Assembly (NCBI GenBank): GCA_022072055.1 | Contig: JAJVIK010000007.1 | Span: 513,442-577,441 of the forward strand | Direction: 5' to 3' | From: a bacterium | GTDB taxonomy: Bacteria > Hinthialibacterota > Hinthialibacteria > OLB16 | Length of the DNA stretch: 64,000 nucleotides | Shown here: positions 2,718 to 61,018 of the stretch, piece after piece | Layout: each line of letters starts with the position of its first letter | Numbering within the stretch: position 1 is the stretch's first letter | Notes under the pieces: generated by a model | What the model was told of the DNA's origin: nothing | The model's database searches: none | Seen by the model: only the letters and a program-made list of their open reading frames with translations | Translations under genes and position numbers: made by a program

Positions 2718-3109
2718 CCGTTCTCCTGGACACGAACGTTCTCGTGGACCTCTGGCGGCAACCGTTCGAGAGCGCGCTGGACCGCCTTCCCATGGGGAGA
2801 GCTGCAATTTGTGGCGTGACACGGGCTGAGCTCCTCCAAGGGGCTCGTTCCGCGACGGACAAGGAAACCATCAATCGACGGTTGCGAATGTTCATCCAGA
2901 TTCCGATCACGGAGGACTTGTGGGGTGAGCTCGGCGATATCTTGGCCTGTCTTCGTAGGCAAGGGATTTCCGTCCCATTTCCTGATGCCCTCATTTCCAC
3001 GGTGGCATTGCATGAAGGGATCGCGCTCTGGACCAACGATTCTCATTTCGGGTTGATTCAGCGGGCCTTTCCCAATTTGGATTTATACATCCCCACGAGG
3101 AGCGAATAG
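2714..3109 (+). CDS. vapC: PIN-domain ribonuclease toxin VapC
   Basis: MTVLLDTNVLVD N-terminus with acidic residues typical of PIN; 131 aa; translationally coupled to the upstream small ORF. Confidence 0.75.
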   Translation: MTVLLDTNVLVDLWRQPFESALDRLPMGRAAICGVTRAELLQGARSATDKETINRRLRMFIQIPITEDLWGELGDILACLRRQGISVPFPDALISTVALHEGIALWTNDSHFGLIQRAFPNLDLYIPTRSE

Positions 3110-3111
3110 CA

Positions 3112-3852
3112 ATGCCCCCTGTAACCTTCAACATCTGGCGCGGCGGCGCCGAAGGCGGAGAATTCAAGGAGTATCGGACCGAGGTCACCGAGGGCATGGT
3201 GGTCCTGGATGCCGTGCACCAGATTCAGGCCGAGTCCGCCAATGACCTCGCGGTGCGCTGGAACTGCAAGGCCGGAAAGTGCGGCTCCTGCTCCGCCGAG
3301 ATCAACGGCAAACCGCGCCTGATGTGCATGACCCGCATGAGCGACCTCCCGGTCAATCAGCCCGTGCGCATCGAACCGATGCAGGCCTTTCCCTCAATCA
3401 AGGACCTGGTCACGGATGTCTCCTGGAACTTCGAGGTCAAGAAACGCCTTAAGAGGTTCAAGCCGCGCAAGCCGGACGCGCCGGATGGGTCTTGGCGCTT
3501 CGCGCAGGCCGACACCGACCGGGTCCAGGAGTTCCGCAAGTGCATCGAGTGCTTTCTGTGCCAGGATGTCTGCCATGTGTTGCGCGACCACCACAAGCAC
3601 GAGGAGTTCATCGGGCCTCGCTTCTTCGTTTACTCCGCCGCGCTGGAGATGCACCCGCTGGATGAAGAGGATCGCCTGGAGGACCTCAAGCGCGCGAACG
3701 GCATCGGCTACTGCAACATCACCAAGTGTTGCACCAAGGTCTGCCCCGAGCACATCACCATCACCGACAACGCGATCATCCCGCTCAAGGAGCGCGTGGT
3801 GGACCGCTTCTATGATCCCGTGCGGATGCTGCTCCGGGTGATTGGGGGATAA
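3112..3852 (+). CDS. sdhB: Succinate dehydrogenase/fumarate reductase iron-sulfur subunit
   Basis: Cys clusters CKAGKCGSCS, CIECFLCQDVC, CTKVCPE for 2Fe-2S/4Fe-4S/3Fe-4S centres. Confidence 0.9.
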   Translation: MPPVTFNIWRGGAEGGEFKEYRTEVTEGMVVLDAVHQIQAESANDLAVRWNCKAGKCGSCSAEINGKPRLMCMTRMSDLPVNQPVRIEPMQAFPSIKDLVTDVSWNFEVKKRLKRFKPRKPDAPDGSWRFAQADTDRVQEFRKCIECFLCQDVCHVLRDHHKHEEFIGPRFFVYSAALEMHPLDEEDRLEDLKRANGIGYCNITKCCTKVCPEHITITDNAIIPLKERVVDRFYDPVRMLLRVIGG

Positions 3853-14210: not shown

Positions 14211-17051
14211 ATGGGCCAACCGATGCACGCAAAGACCCGCCGGATCCTTTTCAGCGCTGTGGTGACACTTCTCTCAACCCTCGGAGTCACGATGCGGGCC
14301 GAGTCCATGACACCCACCCATCTCCGCTGTGAATACCTGGTGAACCCGATCGGAATCGATACGGCCGTCCCACGCCTGAGCTGGCGACTCGCTTCCAGCG
14401 CGCGCGGCGCGCGGCAGAGCGCCTACCGGATTCTGGTGGCCTCCTCCACAGCCGAGCTGAGCAACGACCAAGGCGACCTGTGGGACTCCGGGAAGATCGA
14501 GTCCTCCGAGACCACGCAGATTGTCTATTCCGGAAAGACGCTTTCACACGGTCTTGAATGCCATTGGAAGGTCCGCGCCTGGGACAGCGCGGGGACCCCT
14601 TCCGGATGGAGCGAGGTCGCGCGCTGGTCAATGGGTCCGATGGAGAGCTCGGATTGGACCGCGAAGTGGATCGGCAACGAGGCGCCCTCCCCGCCCACCC
14701 AAGACCCGCTTCCGGCCCAGATGCTTCGCAAGGAATTCGCCCTTGCTTCCTCGCTCCGTCGCGCGGTGGTGCATGTTTCCGCCCTGGGCCTCTATGAGCT
14801 GCGCCTCAACGGCGCGCGCGTGGGGAACCAACTCCTCGCGCCCGAATGGACCGACTATCCCACCCGGGTTCAATATCAGACATACGAAGTGACTGGCTTG
14901 CTTCGCGCCGGAGAAAACGCGGTTGCGGCGCATCTCGGCGATGGGTGGTATTCGGGGCGGATCGGTCTTTCCAACATCGTTCCCGATGGACCGTTGCGCG
15001 GCATTTATGGTCCAAGACCCCGGTTGCTCGTTCAGCTGGAGATCGAATTCGAGGATGGACTTAAGGAGCGGGTGGTCAGCGATGGGAGTTGGCGGCTGAC
15101 CGATGAAGGCCCGATTCGCTCGGCGGACATCCTGGATGGGGAGGTGTATGACGCCCGCCGGGAAAAGCCCGGATGGGACCAGCCCGGTTTTGAGGATTCC
15201 GATTGGAAACCGGTCCAAGTTGAAGAGGATTTCCAGGGCAAGCTGGTGGCCCAGAGGAACGAACCGATCCGAGTGGTCGAGGAGCTGAAACCGATCGCGA
15301 TCACCGAACCGGCGTCCGGCGTGTACATCTTCGATCTCGGGCAGAACATGGTGGGCTGGTGCCGCGCGCGCCTCAGGGGCGAGGCTGGGCGCGCCATCCG
15401 GCTGCGTCACAGCGAGGCGCTGAAGCCGGATGGAACCCTCTATCGAGACAATCTGCGCATGCCGAGTGATGGAGGTCCCTTGGGAGCGCGTCAGGAGGAT
15501 CTCTACATCTGCCGCGGCGAAGGGCCGGAGTGGTTCGAGCCGCATTTCACCTACCATGGTTTCCGCTATGTCGAGGTGACCGGACTTGCGGAGCGACCCA
15601 ACCTCGATTCGCTTGTGGGGCGGGTGTTCTGCTCCTCCGCGCCGGAGACCGCGACCTTTGAGTGCTCCGAGCCGATGCTGAACCGGCTCATGAAGAACAT
15701 CCTCTGGACCCAGCGCGGCAATCTGATGAGTGTTCCGACCGACTGCCCGCAGCGGGATGAGCGTCTAGGTTGGATGGGGGATGCCGGAATCTTCTCTCCG
15801 GCGGCGTGCTTCAACATGGACATGGCCGCATTTTTCACCAAGTGGCTCCAGGATGTTCGGGATTCCCAGGCCGCGGATGGCCGCTTTCCGGATTTCGCGC
15901 CGCATCCGTTCGGTCCGAACGAACGTTTCTCCGGGGTTCCGGCTTGGGGGGATGCCGGGGTGATTGTCCCGTGGGTGGTTTATCGCTGGTATGGGGACAG
16001 TCGGCTGATCGAGACCCATTTCCAGGCCGCCGCGCGCTGGGTGGACCGGATCGCGGAGAAGAACCCGGATCGGATCTGGCGGAACTCTCGCGGCAACGAC
16101 TATGGCGATTGGCTGAATGGCGACACGCTGATCCGGGAGGGGTGGACGCGCGCTGGGGCGGCGATCCCGAAAGAGATCTTCGCGACCCTCCTGTTCGCCA
16201 ACTCGGCAACCCTGGTGGCCAAAATGGCGGCCGTGATCGGCAAGGAGCGGGAGGCCGAGAAGTACAGCGAACTGGCGAGGACCATCCGCGCCGCGTTTGT
16301 CCGGGAGTTTGTGGACAGCGAAGGGCGCATCCAGGGGGACACCCAGGCGGGGTATGCCCTCGCGCTCTCCTTCGAAATGCTCCCAGCGGAGCTCGAGGCG
16401 AAGGCGTTTACACACATGGTGGAGGCTATCGAGAAATATAACCAGCATCTCTCAACCGGGATTATCAGCACCCTTCACCTGATGAACGAGCTGGCGAATC
16501 GCGGCCAGGTCGAGCTGGCCTACCGTCTCCTTACTCAGCGGACCTTCCCTTCCTGGGGGTATGCCATCGAGCAGGGCGCCACCACGATCTGGGAGCGTTG
16601 GGATGGGTATGTGGAGGGCCGGGGATTTCAGGACCCCGGGATGAACTCCTTCAACCACTATGCCCTGGGGGCGGTGGGCGAGTTCATCCATCGAAACATC
16701 CTCGGGATCAACCCGGACACGGACCATCCGGGGTTTGCGCATGCGCGGATTCACCCTCGTCCCGGCGGGGGTTTGACCTGGGCGCGTGGAGCCTATGACT
16801 CGATCCGCGGTCCGATCCGGGTGAGCTGGAGAATCAACGACGCCGGTGGGTTCCGGTTGGAGGTGGAGCTCCCCGCGAACACGAGTGGGACTGTTTACCT
16901 CCCCGCGCGGGAAGCCGCCCAAGTGAGTGAAAGCGGCAAGTCGCTCCGGGAGGCGGAAGGGATTCTCGCGAGCAGGGCCGAGGGAGAGGTCACCGCCGTG
17001 GAGGTGGGTTCGGGGGCGTATGCCTTCGAGGTTTCTCACGCGCCAAGGTAA
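14211..17051 (+). CDS. Alpha-L-rhamnosidase (glycoside hydrolase family 78)
   Basis: 946 aa with signal peptide; GH78 blocks (DCPQRDERLGWMGDAG, six-hairpin region, C-terminal beta-sandwich). Confidence 0.85.
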   Translation: MGQPMHAKTRRILFSAVVTLLSTLGVTMRAESMTPTHLRCEYLVNPIGIDTAVPRLSWRLASSARGARQSAYRILVASSTAELSNDQGDLWDSGKIESSETTQIVYSGKTLSHGLECHWKVRAWDSAGTPSGWSEVARWSMGPMESSDWTAKWIGNEAPSPPTQDPLPAQMLRKEFALASSLRRAVVHVSALGLYELRLNGARVGNQLLAPEWTDYPTRVQYQTYEVTGLLRAGENAVAAHLGDGWYSGRIGLSNIVPDGPLRGIYGPRPRLLVQLEIEFEDGLKERVVSDGSWRLTDEGPIRSADILDGEVYDARREKPGWDQPGFEDSDWKPVQVEEDFQGKLVAQRNEPIRVVEELKPIAITEPASGVYIFDLGQNMVGWCRARLRGEAGRAIRLRHSEALKPDGTLYRDNLRMPSDGGPLGARQEDLYICRGEGPEWFEPHFTYHGFRYVEVTGLAERPNLDSLVGRVFCSSAPETATFECSEPMLNRLMKNILWTQRGNLMSVPTDCPQRDERLGWMGDAGIFSPAACFNMDMAAFFTKWLQDVRDSQAADGRFPDFAPHPFGPNERFSGVPAWGDAGVIVPWVVYRWYGDSRLIETHFQAAARWVDRIAEKNPDRIWRNSRGNDYGDWLNGDTLIREGWTRAGAAIPKEIFATLLFANSATLVAKMAAVIGKEREAEKYSELARTIRAAFVREFVDSEGRIQGDTQAGYALALSFEMLPAELEAKAFTHMVEAIEKYNQHLSTGIISTLHLMNELANRGQVELAYRLLTQRTFPSWGYAIEQGATTIWERWDGYVEGRGFQDPGMNSFNHYALGAVGEFIHRNILGINPDTDHPGFAHARIHPRPGGGLTWARGAYDSIRGPIRVSWRINDAGGFRLEVELPANTSGTVYLPAREAAQVSESGKSLREAEGILASRAEGEVTAVEVGSGAYAFEVSHAPR

Positions 17052-17060
17052 GGTTCATGG

Positions 17061-17228
17061 GCGGAGTCCAACTCCGCGGTCCGGTTCCGCCCAGGAGTCC
17101 AACTCCTGGGCGAGCGGAGGGTTAGAGCATTTCTCACTCGGATGTCGTGTTGGAGGGGCGCGGTCCCTCGCGTCCGGACACGACAGAGCTACGGGGGCGT
17201 CCGGACACGACAGAGCGTGTCCCTCCTG
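17061..17228. repeat. Mosaic GC-rich palindromic repeat, copy B1 (two TCCAA-loop hairpins, TTAGAGC module, GGACACG hairpins)
   Basis: Fills the convergent gap between rhamnosidase and rhaT; homologous to segments at 40720-40772, 53925-54020 (inverted) and 60552-60637. Confidence 0.6.
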
Positions 17229-17229
17229 G

Positions 17230-40485: not shown

Positions 40486-40722
40486 AATTTCCGGCAAGAG
40501 GCCACGATCATACGGGAACTTGAGATTAGGAAAAACGAGATCGAGAAGCTGTGCACGAAGCATTCTGTCCGACGCCTGGAAGTATTTGGCTCCTCGGTGG
40601 AAGGCCGGTTTGACCCCGAGGCCAGTGACCTAGTAGTCTTGGATTCCCGCTTTCGCGGGAATGACGAATATCAGGGACTCCTTCAAGAGCTCGCGCGTCT
40701 TCTGCAGTCATCTTCGCCGTAG
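40486..40722 (+). pseudogene. Remnant of an MNT-type nucleotidyltransferase (HepT/MNT antitoxin family), no start codon, C-terminus replaced by repeats
   Basis: Open frame encoding IRKNEIEKLCTKHSVRRLEVFGSSVEGRFDPEASDLVVLD, then the repeat-encoded DSRFRGNDE; absent from the ORF track. Confidence 0.55.
40641..40669. repeat. Short palindromic element, family A copy 1 (GGATTCCCGCTTTCGCGGGAATGACGAAT)
   Basis: Perfect 7-bp-stem hairpin; identical 29-mer at 59506-59534. Confidence 0.6.
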
Positions 40723-40772
40723 AGCATCTCTCAACCCGAATGTAGCGTCGGAGGGACGCGCTCCGTCGCGTC
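40720..40772. repeat. Mosaic GC-rich palindromic repeat, copy B2 (TAGAGC module plus GGAGGGACGCG hairpin)
   Basis: Aligns with 17122-17175 and with the reverse complement of 53960-54020. Confidence 0.5.
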
Positions 40773-40849
40773 ATGTTGCCCCGGAAGACCCACCACGATT
40801 GGGCGTGGCCCTCCGAGGATTTGCAGGATATCATTAACCGCTCAAGTGA

Positions 40850-43082: not shown

Positions 43083-46000
43083 ATGAGAATCCGCCCATTC
43101 TCGCTCTTGGCGTTTCCTCCGTTGCTTTTTTGCCTCCTTGTGCCTGGGGCGCGAGCCGCCACGTTCACGGTCACCAACACGAACAACAGTGGGGCGGGAT
43201 CCCTGCGTCAGGCGATCCTGGAGGCCAACAGCGTGCTGCCTCCAGAAGCGGTGTTTATTCATTTTAACATTATCGGAATGTTCGTGTTCCCGATTATCAA
43301 TCCCTCTTCTCCGCTTCCCAACATCCTTCGTCCGGTCACCATCGATGGAACCACTCAGCCGACTTCCAACAACCGCGTGGCCATCCAAGGCATTAACGCG
43401 GGGGCCAACGCGGATGGTCTCCATTTCGGTCCCAACTCCGATGGCAGCGTGGTCCGCGGTCTGGTTATCAACAGTTGGAGCGATGACGGCATCGAGCTTG
43501 AGCAGAGCGATGGCACGGTGGTGGCCAGGAATTGGATCGGAGTCGATTTCGCCTTGGGGATGGTCGATCTGGGTAACGGCGCGGCTGGAGTTCATGTCAA
43601 TAATTCGTCCCACACAAGTATTGGTGGACTCACCGCCGCGGACCGAAACGTGATTTCAGGAAACAACGGAAACGGTGTATGGATCATTAATGGCTCCACT
43701 GGGACTCATGTGATCGGAAACTACATCGGAATTGGCGCTGATGGAGCCACCGCCGTCCGCAACACGAACACGGGGGTCCTTATTGCGGCCTGCTCCGACA
43801 ATTATGTCGGTGGTCCGACAGTCGGGGAAAGAAACATCATTTCCGGCAACGGAAACGGAGTGACTGTGCTGGGGGCCAACGCCAGGAACAATGTGATCCA
43901 AGGAAACTGGATTGGAACCAGCGCGAATGGTTCTGCCGACTTGGGGAATGTGGTGGATGGCGTTCGGATCGAATCGGCGCAAAACACGCTGATCGGAGGG
44001 GATGCATCGTTTGAAGGCAACCCGCCGGGGAATGTCATTTCGGGAAACGACATGGCGGGAGTCCACATTCTGGGGGCAAGCCGCACCTTCATCCAGGGAA
44101 ACGCCATCGGGAAGGATGGCAGCGTGGTGGTCGCGATCCCCAACGGAGGGGATGGAGTTCTCGTTGAAGCCGAGACGCTGGGAGCATGGCCCCGACACAC
44201 GGTCATCGGCGGCAGGGGAGGACTCGGCAACGACATCTCACACAATCAGCTGAGCGGGATCGCGATCGAGGATGGAACCGGTGTGCTGATCCAAGGAAAC
44301 AGCCTCTCCGGGAACGGCCAATATGGCGTACGCCTTCGTAGCGACGACAATGTCGTGGGCGGCCCCAGCCCCGAGGACGGCAACGTGATCGCCTTCAACG
44401 GCCGAAGCGGAGTCTATGTAAACGCATCGAGTGGAAATTTGATCGGCGGGGCCACCGAGGAAAGCGGGACCTTCATCTTTGGGAATCAGGAACATGGCGT
44501 CCTGATCAGCGGTCTCACTGGAGAGAACAATCGGATCGAGGGGTGCAATATCGGACGCACCGTGGGGGGGGGCGCATCGGGAAACCTCCGAAACGGCGTC
44601 CGAATCAGCATGTCAAGCAACAACATCGTGGGGGGAACGGAGCCCCACAAGGCCAACGTCATTGTCGCCAACCAGGAGGGGGGCGTGGCGATTCTCAGTG
44701 AGCTCACCCACGGCAACCGAGTTCAAGGAAACGGGATCGGGGTCAGCCTCGAGATTGTAAACAAAGGGACCTACTCCAACTCTGTTGGGGTGTTGATCGA
44801 TGGCGCCAAGAACAACCTGATCGGCGGAACCGAGCCGGGCGCGAGGAATCTGATCTCAGGTAATGACGGGGATGGCATCCTTCTTCGCAACTCCGCCTCA
44901 AACAACCGCATTCAAGGCAACCTGATCGGCCTCGCGGGGGATGGAGTCTTCGGTGTCGGCAATGGCGCAGCGGGGATCGAAATCCTGAATTCCCCCAACA
45001 ACCTCATCGGCGGCACCATGCCCGGCGCGCGCAATGTGATCGCGGACAACAGCGACGGCATCTTTATCCTCGGAGGAGCCCTCTCCGCGAACAATGTCAT
45101 CCGGGGGAATTACATTGGGACCGATGTCTCCGGCGCGCTGGCTCGAGGGAATCATGTTAACGGGGTCTTCGCCCAAGCGGCGGAATTTGTGGTCGGCGGG
45201 ACCGAACCGGGCGCCGGAAATCTGATTTCCGCGAACAGGCTGCGAGGAGTGTTTCTCTCCAGCTTCGATTCCACTCACTGCCGGGTCCAAGGCAATCGGA
45301 TCGGAACCGACGCCTCCGGCATGGCCGCGCTGGGGAATGGAGGCGACGGGGCCCTCCTGGAGAGCACGATCCAGTGCGCCATCGGCGGAACCGCGCCGGG
45401 CGCGGGCAACCTCATCTCCGGGAATGGCGGGAATGGTGTCTGGCTGGTCACCGGAGCAAGCGGAAATGTTGTCGCGGGCAACTTCATCGGCACGAATATC
45501 ACTGGGGACACAAGTCTCGGGAACGGCCAGAGCGCGGTCCTTATCGAGGACGCCCAATTGAACCGGATCGGGGGAAACCAGCCCGGCGCCGCCAACATCC
45601 TCTCCGGCACCAACCAATATGGGGTCCACATCAATCATCCGCTGGCCAAGGAGAATCGCATCGAGGGCAACTTCATCGGGACCGACATCACGGGCTCATT
45701 GCCCCTCGGCAACAGGTTCGGCGGAGTGTTGATTGTGGACGCCTCGGACAACTATATCGGCGGGACAACACCCGGCGCGGGGAACTTGATCTCCGGAAAC
45801 GGAGGCTCCGGCATCCGCCTGTTCAAGACCATGAACACCCCCGGAAGAACCTTCATTCAGGGCAATCGGATCGGAACCGACGTCACCGGAGTGTTGCCGC
45901 TGGGGAACATGAGTCGAGGCGTCGACCTTTCCGCGACAGTCGGAGTGGAGATCGGAGGGATCACCGAGGGCGCGCGAAACCTGATCTCCGGGAACGGGTT

Positions 46001-47342
46001 CTCCGGAATTCTGTTCCACGATGAGGCGCGCGAAACCCTGGTCCAGGGGAATTTCATCGGGACCGACATCACCGGGCTTCTGCCGGTTCCGAATGGTCTT
46101 GATGGGGTCTTCATCGAAAACGCCCCAAGCAATCTGGTCGGAGGCGCCACTCCCGGCGCGGGAAACCTGATCTCCGGGAACGCCCGCTATGGCGTCTATC
46201 TCCTCGATAGCAAGGCGGTCGGGAACCGTGTCCAGGGGAATCGCATCGGCACGGATCTCACCGGTTCCTCGGATATCGGCAACGCCTCGGCGGGGATGTA
46301 CATCAAAGCCGCGACCGGCAATGCTCTAGGCGGAACCGGAGCGGGCGAGGGGAATCAAATCGCCTTTAACCTCGCCGGGGTGACCATCCTTTCCGGCTCG
46401 ATGAACCCCATCCTCTCCAACTCGATCTTCTCCAATGATGGCCTTGGAATCGATCTTGGCGAGGACGGAGTCACCGCCAACGACGAGATCGACTCCGACA
46501 CCGGCGCGAACGATTTCCAAAACTATCCGATCCTCACCGACGCTCGAATCGCCGAGGCCCAACCGGACAACATCCTGTCGATCACAGGAACCCTGCACAG
46601 CGCCACAGCCACGGAGTTCCTGCTTCAGTTCTTCGCAAGCGAGATCTGCGATGCTTCCGGTTTCGGTGAAGGAAGGGTCTTCATCGGTTCGGCCACTGTT
46701 GTGACCAACGCCTCCGGAGACGTCACATTCACATTCGATTTTCCCATCCAACTTACTGGAGCTCTCCAGCTCACCTCAACCGCCACGGACCCCATCGGCA
46801 ACAGCTCGGAGTTCTCCCAGTGCCTGGAGGTGGTCGGCATTCCGACCCCCACTCCGACCGCGAGCGCCACGCTCACCCCCACCTCGACCCCATCGCCGAG
46901 CGCCTCGCCCACGGAGACCGCGACAGACACGCCAAGCGCCTCTCCGACTCAATCGTCCTCTCCCTCGGCGACCTTCACCGGGCAACCGACCGTCACCGCG
47001 AGCGCAACCCCCTCGGCGACCGCCACGGGACAGCCAACATCCACGCCGACCGCGACCTCCTCATCCGCTCCGAGCGCAACTCCCACTCCCACAACCACGG
47101 GTAGCCTACCGGCGACGTCAACTCCCACTCCCACCACGACCGGCAGCCAAGCGGCCACCCCCACGGCCACTTCCACCTGCGCGCCGGACTACAACCTGGA
47201 TGGGCTGGGGGCGATCGACGCGCGGGACCTTCTGCAGCTCCTCGCCGCGATCCGCTCAGGCGACCCCCAAGCGGACTTCAATTGCGATGGCGCGGTGGAT
47301 GGGGATGATCTGCTCGAGTTCAGTGGGAGGTGGAAGGAATAG
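43083..47342 (+). CDS. Giant secreted right-handed parallel beta-helix repeat protein with Pro/Thr-rich linker and C-terminal dockerin-like domain
   Basis: Signal peptide; tens of PbH1-like repeats (NxIxGNxIGxxxxG); dockerin-like Ca-binding loops DYNLDGLGAIDARDL and DFNCDGAVDGDDL. Confidence 0.8.
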   Translation: MRIRPFSLLAFPPLLFCLLVPGARAATFTVTNTNNSGAGSLRQAILEANSVLPPEAVFIHFNIIGMFVFPIINPSSPLPNILRPVTIDGTTQPTSNNRVAIQGINAGANADGLHFGPNSDGSVVRGLVINSWSDDGIELEQSDGTVVARNWIGVDFALGMVDLGNGAAGVHVNNSSHTSIGGLTAADRNVISGNNGNGVWIINGSTGTHVIGNYIGIGADGATAVRNTNTGVLIAACSDNYVGGPTVGERNIISGNGNGVTVLGANARNNVIQGNWIGTSANGSADLGNVVDGVRIESAQNTLIGGDASFEGNPPGNVISGNDMAGVHILGASRTFIQGNAIGKDGSVVVAIPNGGDGVLVEAETLGAWPRHTVIGGRGGLGNDISHNQLSGIAIEDGTGVLIQGNSLSGNGQYGVRLRSDDNVVGGPSPEDGNVIAFNGRSGVYVNASSGNLIGGATEESGTFIFGNQEHGVLISGLTGENNRIEGCNIGRTVGGGASGNLRNGVRISMSSNNIVGGTEPHKANVIVANQEGGVAILSELTHGNRVQGNGIGVSLEIVNKGTYSNSVGVLIDGAKNNLIGGTEPGARNLISGNDGDGILLRNSASNNRIQGNLIGLAGDGVFGVGNGAAGIEILNSPNNLIGGTMPGARNVIADNSDGIFILGGALSANNVIRGNYIGTDVSGALARGNHVNGVFAQAAEFVVGGTEPGAGNLISANRLRGVFLSSFDSTHCRVQGNRIGTDASGMAALGNGGDGALLESTIQCAIGGTAPGAGNLISGNGGNGVWLVTGASGNVVAGNFIGTNITGDTSLGNGQSAVLIEDAQLNRIGGNQPGAANILSGTNQYGVHINHPLAKENRIEGNFIGTDITGSLPLGNRFGGVLIVDASDNYIGGTTPGAGNLISGNGGSGIRLFKTMNTPGRTFIQGNRIGTDVTGVLPLGNMSRGVDLSATVGVEIGGITEGARNLISGNGFSGILFHDEARETLVQGNFIGTDITGLLPVPNGLDGVFIENAPSNLVGGATPGAGNLISGNARYGVYLLDSKAVGNRVQGNRIGTDLTGSSDIGNASAGMYIKAATGNALGGTGAGEGNQIAFNLAGVTILSGSMNPILSNSIFSNDGLGIDLGEDGVTANDEIDSDTGANDFQNYPILTDARIAEAQPDNILSITGTLHSATATEFLLQFFASEICDASGFGEGRVFIGSATVVTNASGDVTFTFDFPIQLTGALQLTSTATDPIGNSSEFSQCLEVVGIPTPTPTASATLTPTSTPSPSASPTETATDTPSASPTQSSSPSATFTGQPTVTASATPSATATGQPTSTPTATSSSAPSATPTPTTTGSLPATSTPTPTTTGSQAATPTATSTCAPDYNLDGLGAIDARDLLQLLAAIRSGDPQADFNCDGAVDGDDLLEFSGRWKE
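46839..47177 (+). repeat. Low-complexity Pro/Thr/Ser-rich linker-coding repeat inside the beta-helix gene
   Basis: About 113 codons of T/P/S/A with a reiterated TPTPTTTGS unit. Confidence 0.6.
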
Positions 47343-51839: not shown

Positions 51840-51907
51840 CCCTGTACACTCGCGTTCGCGTCCTTGGGCGCATCCATTCAGTCATAAGGAGGGAGTTCAC
51901 ACTCCCC

Positions 51908-53899
51908 ATGAAAGCAAAGAGTTCCATGACAAAGCGACCGGCTCGTTTGATCACGGACCTGGTCGCGCTTTCCCGCAAGTATGGAAACGATCCGAGCCAC
52001 ATCATCGCCGGCGGCGGAAACACCTCGGTGAAGCTCGGCGAGCGGATGTGGATCAAGGCCAGCGGCCACTCCCTTGCCACCATCGGTCCCGAGGGGTTCC
52101 TCGAACTGCGGATGCCCGAGGTTCTCGGCATCCTGGCGCGAAAGGACTGGAGCGCCGACCGCGACGAGCGCGAGGCGCAGATTGTCCGGGTGTTGCTCAA
52201 TGCCCGCGTGAACCCGCCTTCACCGAATGTGCGCCCCTCGGTCGAGTCGACCCTGCACGCCCTCATGCCGCAGGCGTTCGTGCTGCACACGCATGGGGAA
52301 CTCGCCAACGGTGTCACCTGCTCGCGGAAAGGCGAGGCGGCCTTCAGACGTCTTCCCTTGCCGCGCAAGGTCCGAGCGGTGTGGATTCCCTATGTCGATC
52401 CCGGCATGCCCCTGGCCCAAGCGCTCGCGAAGGCGCTTAAGGGATACCAAGCCAAGCATGGGGTCCCGGCCAACACGGTGTTCATGGGCAAGCACGGTAT
52501 CCTGGTCGCCGCCGATGAGGCCGCCGAGGCGGACTCCCTCATGCAGGCGTGCGATGAGACCATCCGCGGGGAATTGCGGCGCGGCGCGAGGAAGCGCCGA
52601 ACCGAGATTCAAGTGGTGGATCGCGACCTGGAGGCGGCGGTGGTTCCGGCGCTCCGCTCACTCCTACCGGACCCGACCTGGCTCGTCCGAAGAATCGAGG
52701 AGCCCGCGCTCGATGCCCTGCTCTCGAAAGACCTTGCGAGCCGCGCGGCGCTGCTGCCCGACCAGGTGGTCTATTGCGGGACCTTTCCGCTCTGGGTTCC
52801 GCGCCCGCGGTCCCTTGAACCCGAAGTGGTCCGAGCCGCCGCTGGAGAGGCGCTACAGAGGTTTGTCGAGAAGCACGCGCGCGCGCCGCAAGTCTATCTG
52901 ATCGAAAACCTCGGGGCCTACGCGGGCGGGGCGACTGAGAAGGACTTGCGTAACACCTCCGAGATGTTCGCCTCGGCGATGCGCATGACGGTCAACACCC
53001 GCCCCTTTGGCGGACCCAACCCGCTCACGAAGCGCGAGTACGCTTTCATCGACACCTGGAATGTCGAACAGTACCGTCGCGGCCTGGCCGCCGGAAAATC
53101 CGCCACGGGACGGGCCCAAGGGAAGGTCGCGCTGATCACCGGGGCCGGCCAGGGGGTCGGCAAGGAGATCGCCGAAGGGCTTGCCGAAGAGGGCGCGCGC
53201 CTGGTGCTCGTGGACCTGAATTCGGCGACCTTGAACGAGACTGTTCGGGAGATCAACGCGCGTCACGGCGCGGGCCGCGCGGTCGCAGTCCAGGCCAATG
53301 TCGCCATGGAGGAAGACCAACGCGCCGCGGCGCGTCTTGCGGTGCGAACCTTCGGCGGCTTGGACATCGCCATCGCCAACGCGGGCATTCTCAAGGCCTA
53401 CAAGGTGACTCAGTTTCCCGCCGAGGCGTGGCGCTCCATCATCGATGTGAACCTGGTGGGGGCTTTCCTGTTGGCCAAGGTCGCGGCGGAGGTGATGCAA
53501 TACCAGCGCTCCGGCGACATCATCCAGATCAACTCCAAGTCCGGAAAGTCCGGCAGCAAGTACAATTCCGCCTACGCCGCCTCCAAGTTCGGGGGCATCG
53601 GCCTGGTTCAGAGCTTGGCGCTCGATCTGATCGAGGATGGCATCCGGGTCAACGCGATCTGTCCGGGGAATTTTCTCGATCTGCCGCTCTGGTCCGCGCC
53701 GGGCGGGCTGTTCGACCAATATCGCGCCAAGTACGACAATGCAACGCGCGAGGAGGTCCGCCGGATCTACGAAAGCAAGGTGCCGATGGGACGCGGGTGC
53801 CGTGTTTCCGATGTGGTCCGGGCGATCCTGTACATCTTGGAACAAGACTATGAGACCGGCCAGGCCTACAATGTCACCGGCGGCCAGGAGATGCGCTAG
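51908..53899 (+). CDS. Bifunctional rhamnulose-1-phosphate aldolase / short-chain dehydrogenase
   Basis: N-terminal class II aldolase-like domain; C-terminal SDR (GAGQGVG, YNSAYAASK); ATG at 51908. Confidence 0.85.
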   Translation: MKAKSSMTKRPARLITDLVALSRKYGNDPSHIIAGGGNTSVKLGERMWIKASGHSLATIGPEGFLELRMPEVLGILARKDWSADRDEREAQIVRVLLNARVNPPSPNVRPSVESTLHALMPQAFVLHTHGELANGVTCSRKGEAAFRRLPLPRKVRAVWIPYVDPGMPLAQALAKALKGYQAKHGVPANTVFMGKHGILVAADEAAEADSLMQACDETIRGELRRGARKRRTEIQVVDRDLEAAVVPALRSLLPDPTWLVRRIEEPALDALLSKDLASRAALLPDQVVYCGTFPLWVPRPRSLEPEVVRAAAGEALQRFVEKHARAPQVYLIENLGAYAGGATEKDLRNTSEMFASAMRMTVNTRPFGGPNPLTKREYAFIDTWNVEQYRRGLAAGKSATGRAQGKVALITGAGQGVGKEIAEGLAEEGARLVLVDLNSATLNETVREINARHGAGRAVAVQANVAMEEDQRAAARLAVRTFGGLDIAIANAGILKAYKVTQFPAEAWRSIIDVNLVGAFLLAKVAAEVMQYQRSGDIIQINSKSGKSGSKYNSAYAASKFGGIGLVQSLALDLIEDGIRVNAICPGNFLDLPLWSAPGGLFDQYRAKYDNATREEVRRIYESKVPMGRGCRVSDVVRAILYILEQDYETGQAYNVTGGQEMR

Positions 53900-53924
53900 A
53901 GCGGGTAACGTCAGCGTGTGGCAC

Positions 53925-54020
53925 CTGGAGGGACACGCTCCGTCGTGTCCGGGCGCGAGGGGCCAAGGGACGCGACGGAGCGCGTCCCTCCAACGCAACA
54001 TCCGAGTGAGATAGGCTCTA
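53925..54020. repeat. Mosaic GC-rich palindromic repeat, copy B3 (inverted orientation; long imperfect hairpin)
   Basis: Reverse complement aligns with 17122-17225; about 24-bp stem pairing GGAGGGACACGCTCCGTCGTGTCC with GGGACGCGACGGAGCGCGTCCCTCC. Confidence 0.6.
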
Positions 54021-54030
54021 AGTTGGGGTG

Positions 54031-58459: not shown

Positions 58460-60241
58460 TCAATTCGCCGCTTCTCCCAGCCCGGACCGCCCCTGTCCCT
58501 GCTCCAGGACCCAATCGCGGATGAACTGCGGTGGGAGCTGGTGCAGCGAGAAAAGCCGCTCCCCGCGATAGGCCACTGTGGCCAGCGCCGGGAGCTCCGC
58601 CAAGACCTTCCGCGCCGCCGGATGAAGGTCGCTATAGCGGCTCCCGATGCACGCGAAGACCTGAAGGCCGGGATTGGCGAGCTCCGCCGAGAGCTCGAAC
58701 CGAAACACTTGCAGCCCCTCCGGAATCGCGGGCCAGCCCTCCGGGCCCTCGCGATAGACCGCAGCCGCTCCGCCCTCCAGCAGCAGCACATCCCCCGGAC
58801 GCGCGAGTTCCTGCAGTTTCGGATTGAGCCGATGCATCGAAACCCCCAGGTAATCCAGATCAAACCCCAAGTGTTTCGCCCCGGAGGGCCCGCCGATCAA
58901 GGGCGTGTAGTAGATCAAGTTGTGCGGGTAAACGCGCAGAGATGGAAACAACACAGCCGTCCCCAATGCGGCGAACAGGCTCCACCGAATCGGGCCGGAG
59001 AAACCGGGGTTCCACCGCGACAAGGCCCAACGCCAACCCTCGCGCAGCTCCATCGCGGCGAGCGCACACATCGGGCCATAGGCCGGCAGCAGCAAGCGGA
59101 CCCCATCGAACTTGGGCACGCTCGGAATCGAACTGATCGCGAGCGGCAAGGCGAACGCCACCCACAGCAAACCTTCCTCGCTTCCCCAACCGATCTCGCG
59201 TGTTCGGAACAGGCGCGCGAGTTTCCGAAGCGCGCGCACCGCCACGGGAACCACCAGAAGTGGCGGGAGCGCGAGGGCCGTGAACACCCACGGGTAATGC
59301 CAGGGGGCAAGATTCCAGTGGTTGTAAACGACTCCGAAATAATAGACCGGGATCTTCAGGTGGTTTCCGATGAAGTCGGCGTACTCCTTTATCCCCTTGG
59401 GGAAATCCAGCCACAACGCGGGCCAGAGCAGAAAGGCCGCGAGCAGCGCAAGGAGAGAGAGGAGAAGCGCCATGAGCGCTTCCCTGAGGCTCCGTCGGAG
59501 CGGCTCGCCGCTCCTGGATTCCCGCTTTCGCGGGAATGACGAATCTTCAAGGGGCAGGGATTCCTCATTGTTCCCGCCGCGCCCGTCATCCCCGCGAAAG
59601 CGGGGATCCACGCCCATCGCGGCAAGCTGTGTGGAGAGCACCCAGAACCCAAGGAGTGCGACCAGGTACATCCCCTGCACCTTGGTGAGCAGCGCGAGCA
59701 CAAACAGGACCAGCGCCACGACCTTCCACGCATGGCTTCTGTTCCAGCCCATGAGCGCGAGCGTGGCAAGGCCATACAGCGCGCCAATCAGCCCATCGAT
59801 TCCGAATCGAACCCCATGCAGCACAAAGCGCGGGCTGCCCAGGAACAGCAGCGCCGCAATCAATCCCGCCTTTCGGCCCATCCGCGACGCGAGAAAGGCA
59901 TACGAGGCCGCGCACCAGATTGAGGTGACCAAGGCCACAAACACACGACACGACCCAAGCTCGCCAAGGCTTCGTCGAAACAGGGCGTTGCAGAATCCGC
60001 CCCCGATTTCCATCAGCGGCGGGTGGCGGTGCGCGTCGGGGAAGTACGCGCGCGGCTCGAAAAGACTCGGGGCCGATTCAGCGGTCCACCAGGACTCCAG
60101 CCAGCGACTCCAAGGGACCGCGCGGTTGTAGAACAGCCAGGAATCCCAGTAGGGTCCGAACCCAGGACTGAGTAGGATGAGTCCCCAGAGGATGATGGCG
60201 CCAAGGAGAGTGGCCTCAAGGCCAAGCCGACTTCGGATCAT
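58460..60241 (-). CDS. Polytopic membrane glycosyltransferase, GT39/PMT-ArnT-like, carrying a repeat-encoded hydrophilic insertion
   Basis: 593 aa, many TM helices N-terminally and a soluble C-terminal domain; family assignment from architecture only. Confidence 0.55.
   Translation of the reverse strand: MIRSRLGLEATLLGAIILWGLILLSPGFGPYWDSWLFYNRAVPWSRWLESWWTAESAPSLFEPRAYFPDAHRHPPLMEIGGGFCNALFRRSLGELGSCRVFVALVTSIWCAASYAFLASRMGRKAGLIAALLFLGSPRFVLHGVRFGIDGLIGALYGLATLALMGWNRSHAWKVVALVLFVLALLTKVQGMYLVALLGFWVLSTQLAAMGVDPRFRGDDGRGGNNEESLPLEDSSFPRKRESRSGEPLRRSLREALMALLLSLLALLAAFLLWPALWLDFPKGIKEYADFIGNHLKIPVYYFGVVYNHWNLAPWHYPWVFTALALPPLLVVPVAVRALRKLARLFRTREIGWGSEEGLLWVAFALPLAISSIPSVPKFDGVRLLLPAYGPMCALAAMELREGWRWALSRWNPGFSGPIRWSLFAALGTAVLFPSLRVYPHNLIYYTPLIGGPSGAKHLGFDLDYLGVSMHRLNPKLQELARPGDVLLLEGGAAAVYREGPEGWPAIPEGLQVFRFELSAELANPGLQVFACIGSRYSDLHPAARKVLAELPALATVAYRGERLFSLHQLPPQFIRDWVLEQGQGRSGLGEAAN
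59506..59599. repeat. Family A composite palindromic element (29-mer plus inverted partner CGTCATCCCCGCGAAAGCGGGGATCC) inside the glycosyltransferase ORF
   Basis: Left arm identical to 40641-40669; right arm is its reverse complement with compensatory changes; translated in-frame as a loop. Confidence 0.6.
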
Positions 60242-60265: not shown

Positions 60266-60523
60266 CTACTTGATCTCCCGCCAGACCGCATCCTCGGCAT
60301 CTCGACTGGGAGGGATCGGTTTAGCCGTCCAGTAGATCCGCCAAGCCAGACCCACCAAGGCGAACCCTCCCAGGAAGCAGAACGCCGCGACCGCCACCGC
60401 GAGGATCAGAGGGAACAAGAGGATCAGGAGACCCAGGGCAAGGAGAAACAGGCCGCCCGAGAGGAACTTCCATGCAACCGCCCGCGACAGCGCCTCGCTG
60501 GATGTGAGATGGACAAACCGCAT
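60266..60523 (-). CDS. Small hypothetical membrane protein (two hydrophobic helices)
   Basis: 85-aa ORF with ATG at 60523. Confidence 0.4.
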   Translation of the reverse strand: MRFVHLTSSEALSRAVAWKFLSGGLFLLALGLLILLFPLILAVAVAAFCFLGGFALVGLAWRIYWTAKPIPPSRDAEDAVWREIK

Positions 60524-60551: not shown

Positions 60552-60637
60552 GTGAGTGCAACTCACCTTACCGGCTCCGCCCCGGAGTGCAACTCCCGGG
60601 CGAGCGTGGGGCCGCGACGGAGCGCGGCCCTCCTCAC
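60552..60637. repeat. Mosaic GC-rich palindromic repeat, copy B4 (two TGCAA-loop hairpins plus GGCCGCG hairpin)
   Basis: Aligns with 17061-17121; stems differ by compensatory substitutions while loops are conserved. Confidence 0.55.
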
Positions 60638-61018
60638 TCAATCATGAACAATGCCGCGATAGGCCGTGGCATCCAGGAGCGTGTCGAGGTCCGCCGAATT
60701 GGCCGGAGCAATCCGGAACAGCCATCCTTTTTCATACGGGGATTGATTGATCCAATCGGGGTGTGTGGCCAGGTCGGCGTTGATCGCGGTCACCGTCCCT
60801 CCCACCGGGGCGTAGACATCCGAGGCCACCTTGGTCGATTCGACCACACAGCAAGCCTCCTTGGCCGCGACCGCGCGCCCGACCTCGGGGAGCTCCACGA
60901 ACACAATGTCGGTGAGTTCATGCTGGGCGAAGTCGGTGACCCCCACCACCACTTGGCCGTCTTCCAGGCGAGCCCATTCGTGAGTTTCGGAATATTTCAA
61001 GGTTTCCGGGACAATCAT
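60638..61018 (-). CDS. gcvH: Glycine cleavage system H protein
   Basis: Lipoyl-lysine region ESTKVASDVYAPVGGTV; 126 aa. Confidence 0.9.
   Translation of the reverse strand: MIVPETLKYSETHEWARLEDGQVVVGVTDFAQHELTDIVFVELPEVGRAVAAKEACCVVESTKVASDVYAPVGGTVTAINADLATHPDWINQSPYEKGWLFRIAPANSADLDTLLDATAYRGIVHD

Follow-up and report, generated by a model that had tools for sequence, protein, structure and literature searches.

The window analysed here, a stretch of bacterial DNA of 64,000 nucleotides, contains two copies of a hairpin doublet, both of which are intergenic. Upstream of copy A (17061-17115, + strand), a GH78-like rhamnosidase gene (14211..17051, +) ends at its stop codon; on the other side, an opposite-strand gene for a RhaT-like permease reaches its 3' end. 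Copy B (60552-60605, + strand) has gcvH (60638..61018, -) on one side and a small membrane ORF (60266..60523, -) on the other. The features of the two sites are as follows.

17061..17077, + strand: copy A hairpin 1, GCGGAGT-CCA-ACTCCGC, 7 bp (from sequence, DNA fold and covariance model)
17088..17112, + strand: copy A hairpin 2, CGCCCAGGAGT-CCA-ACTCCTGGGCG, 11 bp, perfect (from sequence, DNA fold and covariance model)
17113..17115, + strand: copy A conserved 3' tail, AGC (from sequence and alignment A2)
17122..17229, no strand assigned: cluster of a second repeat family with a longer shared module, directly 3' of copy A (repeat families I2, I3, I18 and D12; a BIME-like mosaic)
60552..60566, + strand: copy B hairpin 1, GTGAGT-GCA-ACTCAC, 6 bp, apex GAGTGCAACTC (from sequence, DNA fold and covariance model)
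60578..60602, + strand: copy B hairpin 2, CGCCCCGGAGT-GCA-ACTCCCGGGCG, 10 of 11 pairs, with a C.C mismatch at 60583/60597
60603..60605, + strand: copy B conserved 3' tail, AGC, which on the - strand is a 5' foot GCT
60609..60630, no strand assigned: adjacent hairpin of the other repeat family, GGGCCGCG-ACGGAG-CGCGGCCC (repeat family D12), missing from the orthologous spacer of a related genome (L201)

All four hairpins of the doublets share the apex GAGT-SCA-ACTC, and a linker of 10-11 nt separates hairpin 1 from hairpin 2. The GAGT cores are spaced 31 nt in copies A and B alike, so that the two align without gaps; they are identical at 44 of the 62 aligned positions. A preliminary description of this DNA had placed two hairpins in each copy and proposed that compensatory base changes preserve both. 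The hairpins are present in both copies as described there, and in hairpin 1 two true double changes between the copies (C-G to G-C and G-C to T-A) keep the pairing. The compensation claimed for hairpin 2 does not hold, as the quoted stem 'CCGGAG...CTCCCGG' is not self-complementary and copy B has its C.C mismatch where copy A has an A-T pair. Copy B is slightly decayed by this one mismatch. The conserved GGGCGAGCG block reported after the hairpins is real, but it is not a separate element: it consists of the 3' arm of hairpin 2 (GGGCG) plus the conserved AGC tail.

The hairpin pairs in the window exceed chance expectation. The exact 11-mer with S at its first loop position is expected about 0.06 times per 128 kb (both strands), whereas four were seen, as two identically spaced pairs. 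Matches with one mismatch numbered six, compared to 2.1 in shuffled sequences. Folding of the + strand DNA gave z-scores of -6.6 and -3.2 for the two copies, and the two-hairpin fold was found on both strands of both copies, well under the shuffled controls. The covariance model R1, which was built from alignment A2 with sequences mostly of other genomes, found exactly two sites in the 64 kb, with scores of 63.1 and 51.8 bits. The next-best score in the window (14.6 bits) was the reverse strand of an already found site. A solitary hairpin, GGGAGTTCACACTCCC, at 51885-51917 weakly matched the hairpin-1 half of R1 (11.6 bits, E = 0.39), probably by chance.

We searched reference genomes for pairs of GAGTNCAACTC cores 15-25 nt apart and found at least 117 loci. 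About a quarter of these were coding tandem repeats, which are irrelevant here, and the remainder were intergenic multi-copy families. Among the matches listed, doublet families occurred in an Armatimonadota chromosome, a Chloroflexota genome, several Hymenobacter genomes and the uncultured CAYZUX and CAZORO. Related families with a different tail were present in Lysobacterales, other Gammaproteobacteria, Chthonomonas and rumen Bacteroidales. The unit was carried by at least 11 8-kb windows from one Armatimonadota chromosome and at least 14 from the CAYZUX genome. In this unit, the core of hairpin 1 is extended by 3-7 pairs, a linker of about 9 nt follows, hairpin 2 has 11 bp (seven of them outside the core), and A-R-C forms the 3' tail. 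A full-text literature search with six literal 11-mers matched only PCR primers of unrelated papers.

Alignment A2 contained 50 units of several phyla and provided a much broader basis for the structural observation than the two copies of the window. Overall, 92.4% of cells were paired, compared to 71.0% after shuffling, and none of 500 shuffles reached the observed value. The search pattern imposed the four core pairs, and the alignment filter two or three closing pairs, so that core conservation and inner pairing are partly by construction. Double changes were found at 12 of the 20 pairs, and pairing fell to 36-51% in partner-sliding controls. Hairpin 2 was 97% paired with seven covarying pairs. 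These included the four outer pairs, which were required by neither the search pattern nor the filter and which were paired in 80-98% of the sequences, each in three to four pair types. From the alignment, RNAalifold independently predicted the identical two helices. The pair counts were made without a MAFFT alignment of the closest subfamily (A5), in which gaps had been misplaced within hairpin 1 of copies A and B.

In the retrieved loci, R1 matched 158 sites, including copies without the exact 11-mer that showed compensatory variants of the core (CAGT..ACTG, GGGT..ACCC and GATT..AATC). In the copies recovered by R1 the loop N-C-A is kept, with any base at N. The stems covary, while the apex T-NCA-A closed by GAG/CTC is constant. 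Selection for pairing, as the preliminary description had proposed, is borne out by this covariation, which is strong in 50 sequences and would be a weak claim from two copies alone. That description was right in substance about the structure and wrong in one detail.

The gcvH spacer could be compared between related genomes. In the closest of these (L201), where gcvH is 87% identical and followed by the same ORF, the doublet is found downstream of gcvH at the same place and in the same orientation. Its hairpin 2 is perfect, with an A-T at the pair where copy B has C.C. The sequence of the window itself also occurs in GCA_013360775.1. No doublet was found in the 60-nt gcvH spacer of the CAYZUX genome (L205; gcvH 68% identical, same synteny), which has many doublet copies elsewhere, and it was likewise absent from the gcvH spacer of L202. 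A doublet present in one relative and absent from two others is distributed like an inserted repeat rather than like a conserved leader or trailer. The nearest named gcvH relatives belong to Candidatus Omnitrophica (61%) and Limisphaerales (54%).

The spacers that hold the doublets also contain other repeats. The adjacent hairpin at 60609-60630 makes the gcvH spacer a mosaic of two repeat types. It belongs to a second hairpin-repeat family, GGGNCGCG-ACGGAG-CGCGNCCC followed by TCC, which occurs in the window at 17150-17229, 40750-40775, 53924-53995 and 60609-60630 and adjoins both doublets. The stems of this family also covary (GGACACG/CGTGTCC, GGACGCG/CGCGTCC and GGCCGCG/CGCGGCC). It is probably another mobile REP-like family, because its 60609-60630 copy is absent from the L201 spacer. 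A longer shared module, TTAGAGCATYTCTCACTCGGATGT..GTTGGAGGG, precedes hairpins of this second type at 17122-17175, 53968-54021 (inverted) and 40724-40760 (repeats I1 and I2), and the module and hairpins together form mosaic clusters in three intergenic regions.

A third repeat, TGGATTCCCGCTTTCGCGGGAATGACG, was found in the window at 40637-40669, 59512-59544 and 59584-59610. Two inverted copies of it lie inside a 593-aa PMT_2-like ORF (58460..60241, -), where they leave the frame intact and encode ..FRGDDGRGG..SFPRKRESRSG... This repeat is also found beside a doublet in a related genome (L034). The window further contains at least nine tandem coding repeats at 44820-46381 (families D1 and D2), which have a period of 186-195 nt (62-65 aa; IGGTEPGARNLISGN..), are of parallel beta-helix style and lie within a large ORF.

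Outside the window, the doublets are usually parts of a larger element. The usual order in related genomes is '- - + +', in which two reverse-complemented hairpins, a variable spacer of 16-70 nt and two direct hairpins follow each other, with the long hairpins and tails pointing outwards. The CAYZUX arms are of two types, with a GGTCCAG-type or a CGCCCAC-type stem. Copies A and B of the window are of the CGCCCAC ('B-end') type and are solo arms ('+ +'), not full inverted pairs. According to crude ORF-based gene calls, used only as a rough indication of flank orientation, the flanking genes converged at roughly 16 spacers, were co-directional at 17 and diverged at 4. Of the solo arms located in co-directional spacers, three were sense to transcription and three antisense. 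Calls of elements inside genes in high-GC loci, including one for copy B, were spurious-ORF artefacts. Di Nocera et al. 2013 (PMC3733652) describe REPs as favouring convergent and unidirectional spacers and as arranged in inverted dimers.

An all-against-all comparison of the ORFs in these loci returned one family of about 185 aa that was common to five or more lineages. It matches Pfam Y1_Tnp (PF01797), a Y1/HUH protein, and scores 94-120 bits on the NCBIfam model NF047646 'REP-associated tyrosine transposase' (RAYT; cutoff 80). The RAYT protein that reached 120 bits on this equivalog scored 32 bits on the IS200 model, under its cutoff of 55. The sole solved relative is E. coli TnpA_REP (4ER8, E = 6e-8). 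A RAYT gene was present in 8 of about 90 random 8-kb windows, which is far above chance for a normally single-copy gene.

At 15 loci or more, a RAYT gene of about 180 aa is flanked by the units, with an inverted arm before it and a direct arm after it. In the CAYZUX genome (L102), an arm at 2784-2846 (-) is followed by the gene at 2905-3447 (+) and a second arm at 3453-3515 (+). The gene is bracketed similarly in L022, L071 and L103, while both arms are direct in L024. We also looked up the four closest homologues of the L102 protein (79, 60, 56 and 52% identity; the RAYT-flanking loci are L208-L213), and R1 matches were arranged as '- arm, gene, + arm' around all four. The arm that abuts the RAYT start codon in L209, GCGGAGTACAACTCCGAGG..GTTCCGCCCAGGAGTGCAACTCCTGGGCGAGCGG, equals hairpin 2 and tail of copy A save for the free loop base. 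Upstream of this RAYT gene (1220-1450) lies a long run of a 15-nt tandem repeat, CCGCCGCTCGCCCAG, which is broken by an assembly gap and whose unit is the foot plus outer stem of hairpin 2. The order around the gene matches the 'inverted arm, spacer, direct arm' of the small elements, which is how REPtron and REPIN are related.

No RAYT gene was found in the 64-kb window, where a search at E <= 10 gave noise only. From the relatives, we infer that the source organism carries a cognate RAYT. The identity and synteny of the CAYZUX gcvH show that the genome bearing the cognate RAYT of L102 is a relative of the window organism.

To more distant RAYTs the association extended in part. Using a three-protein alignment (A4), we collected 80 metagenomic loci with relatives of the L102 protein at 35-45% identity. 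The exact 11-mer was found in none of the 80, so the apex is not universal to the protein clade. R1 doublets with variant cores directly flank the gene in seven of them (L121, L130, L131, L140, L143, L153 and L154). Most others carry their own lineage-specific inverted hairpins, as identified by a plain hairpin scan. Many of these share the T-NCA-A apex (GGATT-GCA-AATCC, CGTT-GCA-AACG and AAGTT-ACA-AACTT), and others have GAA, AGA or AGGA loops. The hairpin type covaries with the lineage of the RAYT protein.

The RAYTs are 181-196 aa long and, as read from the alignment, have the motifs NHFH/NHAH/NHLH/THFH, VWQ/FWQ and YLHQNP/YLHDNP/YIHGNP. Those beside doublets of the window type read NHFH/THFH, VWQ and YLHQNP/YIHGNP, which would fit RAYT subclass 2.6, an assignment made by motif reading with close rather than exact motifs. 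A second set (L022, L024, L048 and L001) has NHVH and YIEWNP/YIENNP and by motif fits subclass 2.4. It adjoins hairpins of the same apex with the tail G-N-TCC. The 2.6-like and 2.4-like RAYTs are only about 25% identical. In one locus of this set, from a cyanobacterial genome (L001), a doublet (2018-2075) lies inside the RAYT gene (1834-2487), where the tblastn alignment spans an insertion of about 40 aa. In-frame REP insertions have been reported for subclass 2.4, and this doublet within the gene matches them. In a Hymenobacter RAYT (L103, 3149-3691), GNEAK aligns where relatives read (E/G)YHP(I/V), so that this column lacks the tyrosine conserved in other members of the clade. A shifted alignment or an inactive copy could account for this.

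In several respects, the doublets resemble the REPs and REPINs of E. coli and Pseudomonas fluorescens (PMC2817692, PMC3116915, PMC3479197). In related genomes they are short GC-rich extragenic hairpins in many dispersed copies, mostly form inverted pairs round a short spacer, and bracket a single-copy Y1/HUH gene (REPtron); the window has two copies, both of them solo arms. They also lie mainly downstream of genes, form BIME-like mosaics with other repeat types and are associated with a protein homologous to 4ER8. With hairpin lengths of 15-17 and 25 nt in the window, we judged them comparable in size and palindromic character to REPs (20-40 nt, GC-rich). Unlike canonical REPs, they have no 5' GT[AG]G foot and possess a GCT/GTT foot instead (the AGC/AAC tail on the + strand). 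In place of a single hairpin, each arm has two different hairpins in direct order with a common apex, and the conserved part is the apex rather than the foot plus stem irregularity, with the same 11-mer apex in several phyla.

Subclasses 2.6 and 3 are documented exceptions without GT[AG]G (PMC6006769). Subclass 2.6, which corresponds to RAYT Group 5 of Bertels et al. 2017 (PMC5581495), was described by Quentin et al. 2018 (PMC6006769) as proteins of about 179 aa with NH[LIV]H, WQ, YIH[QN]NP and an insertion between alphaC and beta4. They were mostly from Bacteroidetes, and 'atypical secondary structures' flanking them were noted by manual inspection (PMC6006769). Table S1 of that study includes CGTTGGGATT-ACA-AATCCCAACG-AGCG, and GCTAG and GCTGG are among its feet. 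The system described here is similar in the length of its protein (about 180 aa), in the motifs NHxH, (V/F)WQ and Y(L/I)H(Q/D/G)NP, and in the T-NCA-A apex, AGC tail and GCT(R)G feet of the Table S1 hairpins; the GCT foot on the - strand of copy B resembles the latter. It differs from the published subclass in that the family is found in Armatimonadota, Chloroflexota, the PVC-like uncultured lineage of the window and others, and in having a defined two-hairpin arm and four-hairpin miniature element, with the assignment to 2.6 made by motif reading.

Two other systems share single traits with the doublets. Like IS200/IS605 elements (IS608, ISDra2), they are associated with a Y1 HUH transposase and resemble its recognised subterminal single-strand hairpin ends. 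In IS200/IS605 both ends share one strand (direct), and the gene occurs in multiple copies and often together with tnpB, whereas here the arms are inverted and the gene is seemingly single-copy per locus. TwoAYGGAY and other tandem-hairpin motifs of Rfam likewise have two adjacent hairpins, an identical conserved loop and covarying stems. Unlike these, the doublets match no Rfam model, occur in both orientations and flank a transposase.

The preliminary description had implied a transcribed structured RNA. The doublets would then primarily be RNA elements, either structures that terminate or protect the 3' UTRs of the gcvH, rhaT and rhamnosidase mRNAs or a small structured RNA, and the covariation would reflect RNA folding. 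The positions lend themselves to this, since both copies lie just downstream of genes and, on the - strand, follow a stop codon in the same orientation, and the family as a whole favours convergent and co-directional spacers. REPs of E. coli are also known to influence mRNA 3' ends, and a secondary RNA effect is plausible. As the primary role, we nevertheless consider it unlikely. Searches against Rfam 15 gave no match bearing on the doublets at the gathering threshold in the window or in 18 loci, and chance-level matches only when the site was searched at an E-value threshold. Neither hairpin is followed by a T-run on either strand, no intrinsic terminator (GC-rich hairpin with a T/U run) was called overlapping either doublet, and the even split of solo arms between sense and antisense shows no consistent orientation. 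Full elements, moreover, carry both orientations side by side and bracket a transposase gene in many lineages, and a relative with many copies elsewhere lacks the doublet in its gcvH spacer. The possibility that the preliminary description had set against its own proposal, namely that the elements act only as DNA sites, appears close to what this evidence favours.

If the elements are DNA sites, they could be bound as double strands, as operators of a dimeric regulator (GAGT-N3-ACTC, three helical turns apart) or as MITE inverted repeats of a DDE transposase. Such sites would explain the palindromic core, the two sites 31 bp apart, the inverted ends of full elements (some lineages end in ...CA) and the position of copy B upstream of a small ORF. 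We regard them as highly improbable. The NCA centre is asymmetric and strand-specific and yet conserved, and the flanks of the core, which are free to vary, stay self-complementary for up to seven further pairs that duplex binding does not need. Neither doublet looks like a promoter, and copy A is flanked by convergent genes, where there is no promoter for a regulator to act on. The sole recurrent neighbour is an HUH/Y1 enzyme, which acts on single-stranded hairpins, and not a DDE transposase or regulator. A chance likeness of GC-rich palindromes, or a local duplication without a wider family, has in its favour that there are only two copies in 64 kb and that one-mismatch 11-mers are near the shuffled level. 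It can practically be dismissed, given scores of 63 and 52 bits where the rest of the window stays below 15 bits, hundreds of homologous units in other genomes and an orthologous copy in a relative.

Other identities were rejected on their sequence features. A sigma-54 promoter would need TTGCA, which arises only when N is G, at a position that is free to vary. For a tRNA T-arm mimic the loop is not long enough, and a CRISPR does not agree with a period of 31 nt and two units only. The sequence does not fit an integron attC, a boxB-like pentaloop, type III antitoxin repeats, parS, dif or uptake sequences. Separately, a Lysobacterales locus (L041) contains an Acido-Lenti-1 RNA (RF01687) at positions 205-249, at gathering score (37.1 bits), and a weaker copy at 444-488. 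This element is unrelated to the doublets and lies outside the phyla for which that RNA family is named.

Each site in the window is thus very probably a REP doublet, that is, one arm of a four-hairpin REPIN-like miniature element of an atypical subclass 2.6-type RAYT (TnpA_REP; HUH/Y1). By analogy with the TnpA proteins of IS200/IS605 (including IS608/ISDra2) and with E. coli TnpA_REP, the structural constraint is most likely exerted on hairpins of single-stranded DNA that the transposase recognises. The hairpins would fold when the DNA is single-stranded, for example on the lagging-strand template, and the RAYT would read the hairpin shape plus specific unpaired bases. These would probably be the loop and the GCT/AGC foot, and not the canonical GTAG foot. 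The RAYT would then cut and rejoin the strand, by which the element is copied or moved. Because only copies that still fold would be propagated, this would yield the compensatory pattern. Binding and cleavage of the hairpin as single-stranded DNA by a RAYT is known only for E. coli TnpA_REP (PMC3479197). The window copies may additionally affect the 3' ends of the gcvH and rhaT mRNAs, as E. coli REPs do.

The apex itself was seen in Armatimonadota, Chloroflexota, Bacteroidota and the lineage of the window, and, joined to another tail, in Gammaproteobacteria, a cyanobacterial genome and Chthonomonas, and it adjoins both 2.6-like and 2.4-like RAYTs. That it is shared across phyla and two RAYT subclasses makes it a moderately interesting feature. 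We tentatively suggest that the apex (a loop NCA closed by T-A and GAG/CTC) is a transposase recognition code distinct from the GTAG foot and that the two-hairpin arm is a bipartite end, although we would not put this above a conjecture. The distribution would then imply either that REP-RAYT modules spread horizontally between phyla or that lineages converged on one especially favourable DNA hairpin, and the two-hairpin arm would be analogous to the guide-plus-hairpin ends of IS200/IS605.

The doublets are most likely REP doublets of a RAYT and so belong to an already known class of mobile DNA hairpins; a new structured RNA is the less likely reading. An annotation of these spacers should call them REP repeats instead of candidate riboswitches or small RNAs, and the same probably applies to the neighbouring repeat families. 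Subclass 2.6 RAYTs form the least described REP system, for which the literature records only atypical structures found by eye. New here are a covariance model and a concrete anatomy, in which the arm has two hairpins, the apex T-NCA-A is fixed, the foot is GCT and a miniature element of four hairpins has the layout of the gene-carrying unit; also new is the occurrence of a subclass 2.6-like system outside Bacteroidota. If the loop and not the foot determines recognition, REP recognition would be more varied than the E. coli structure suggests.
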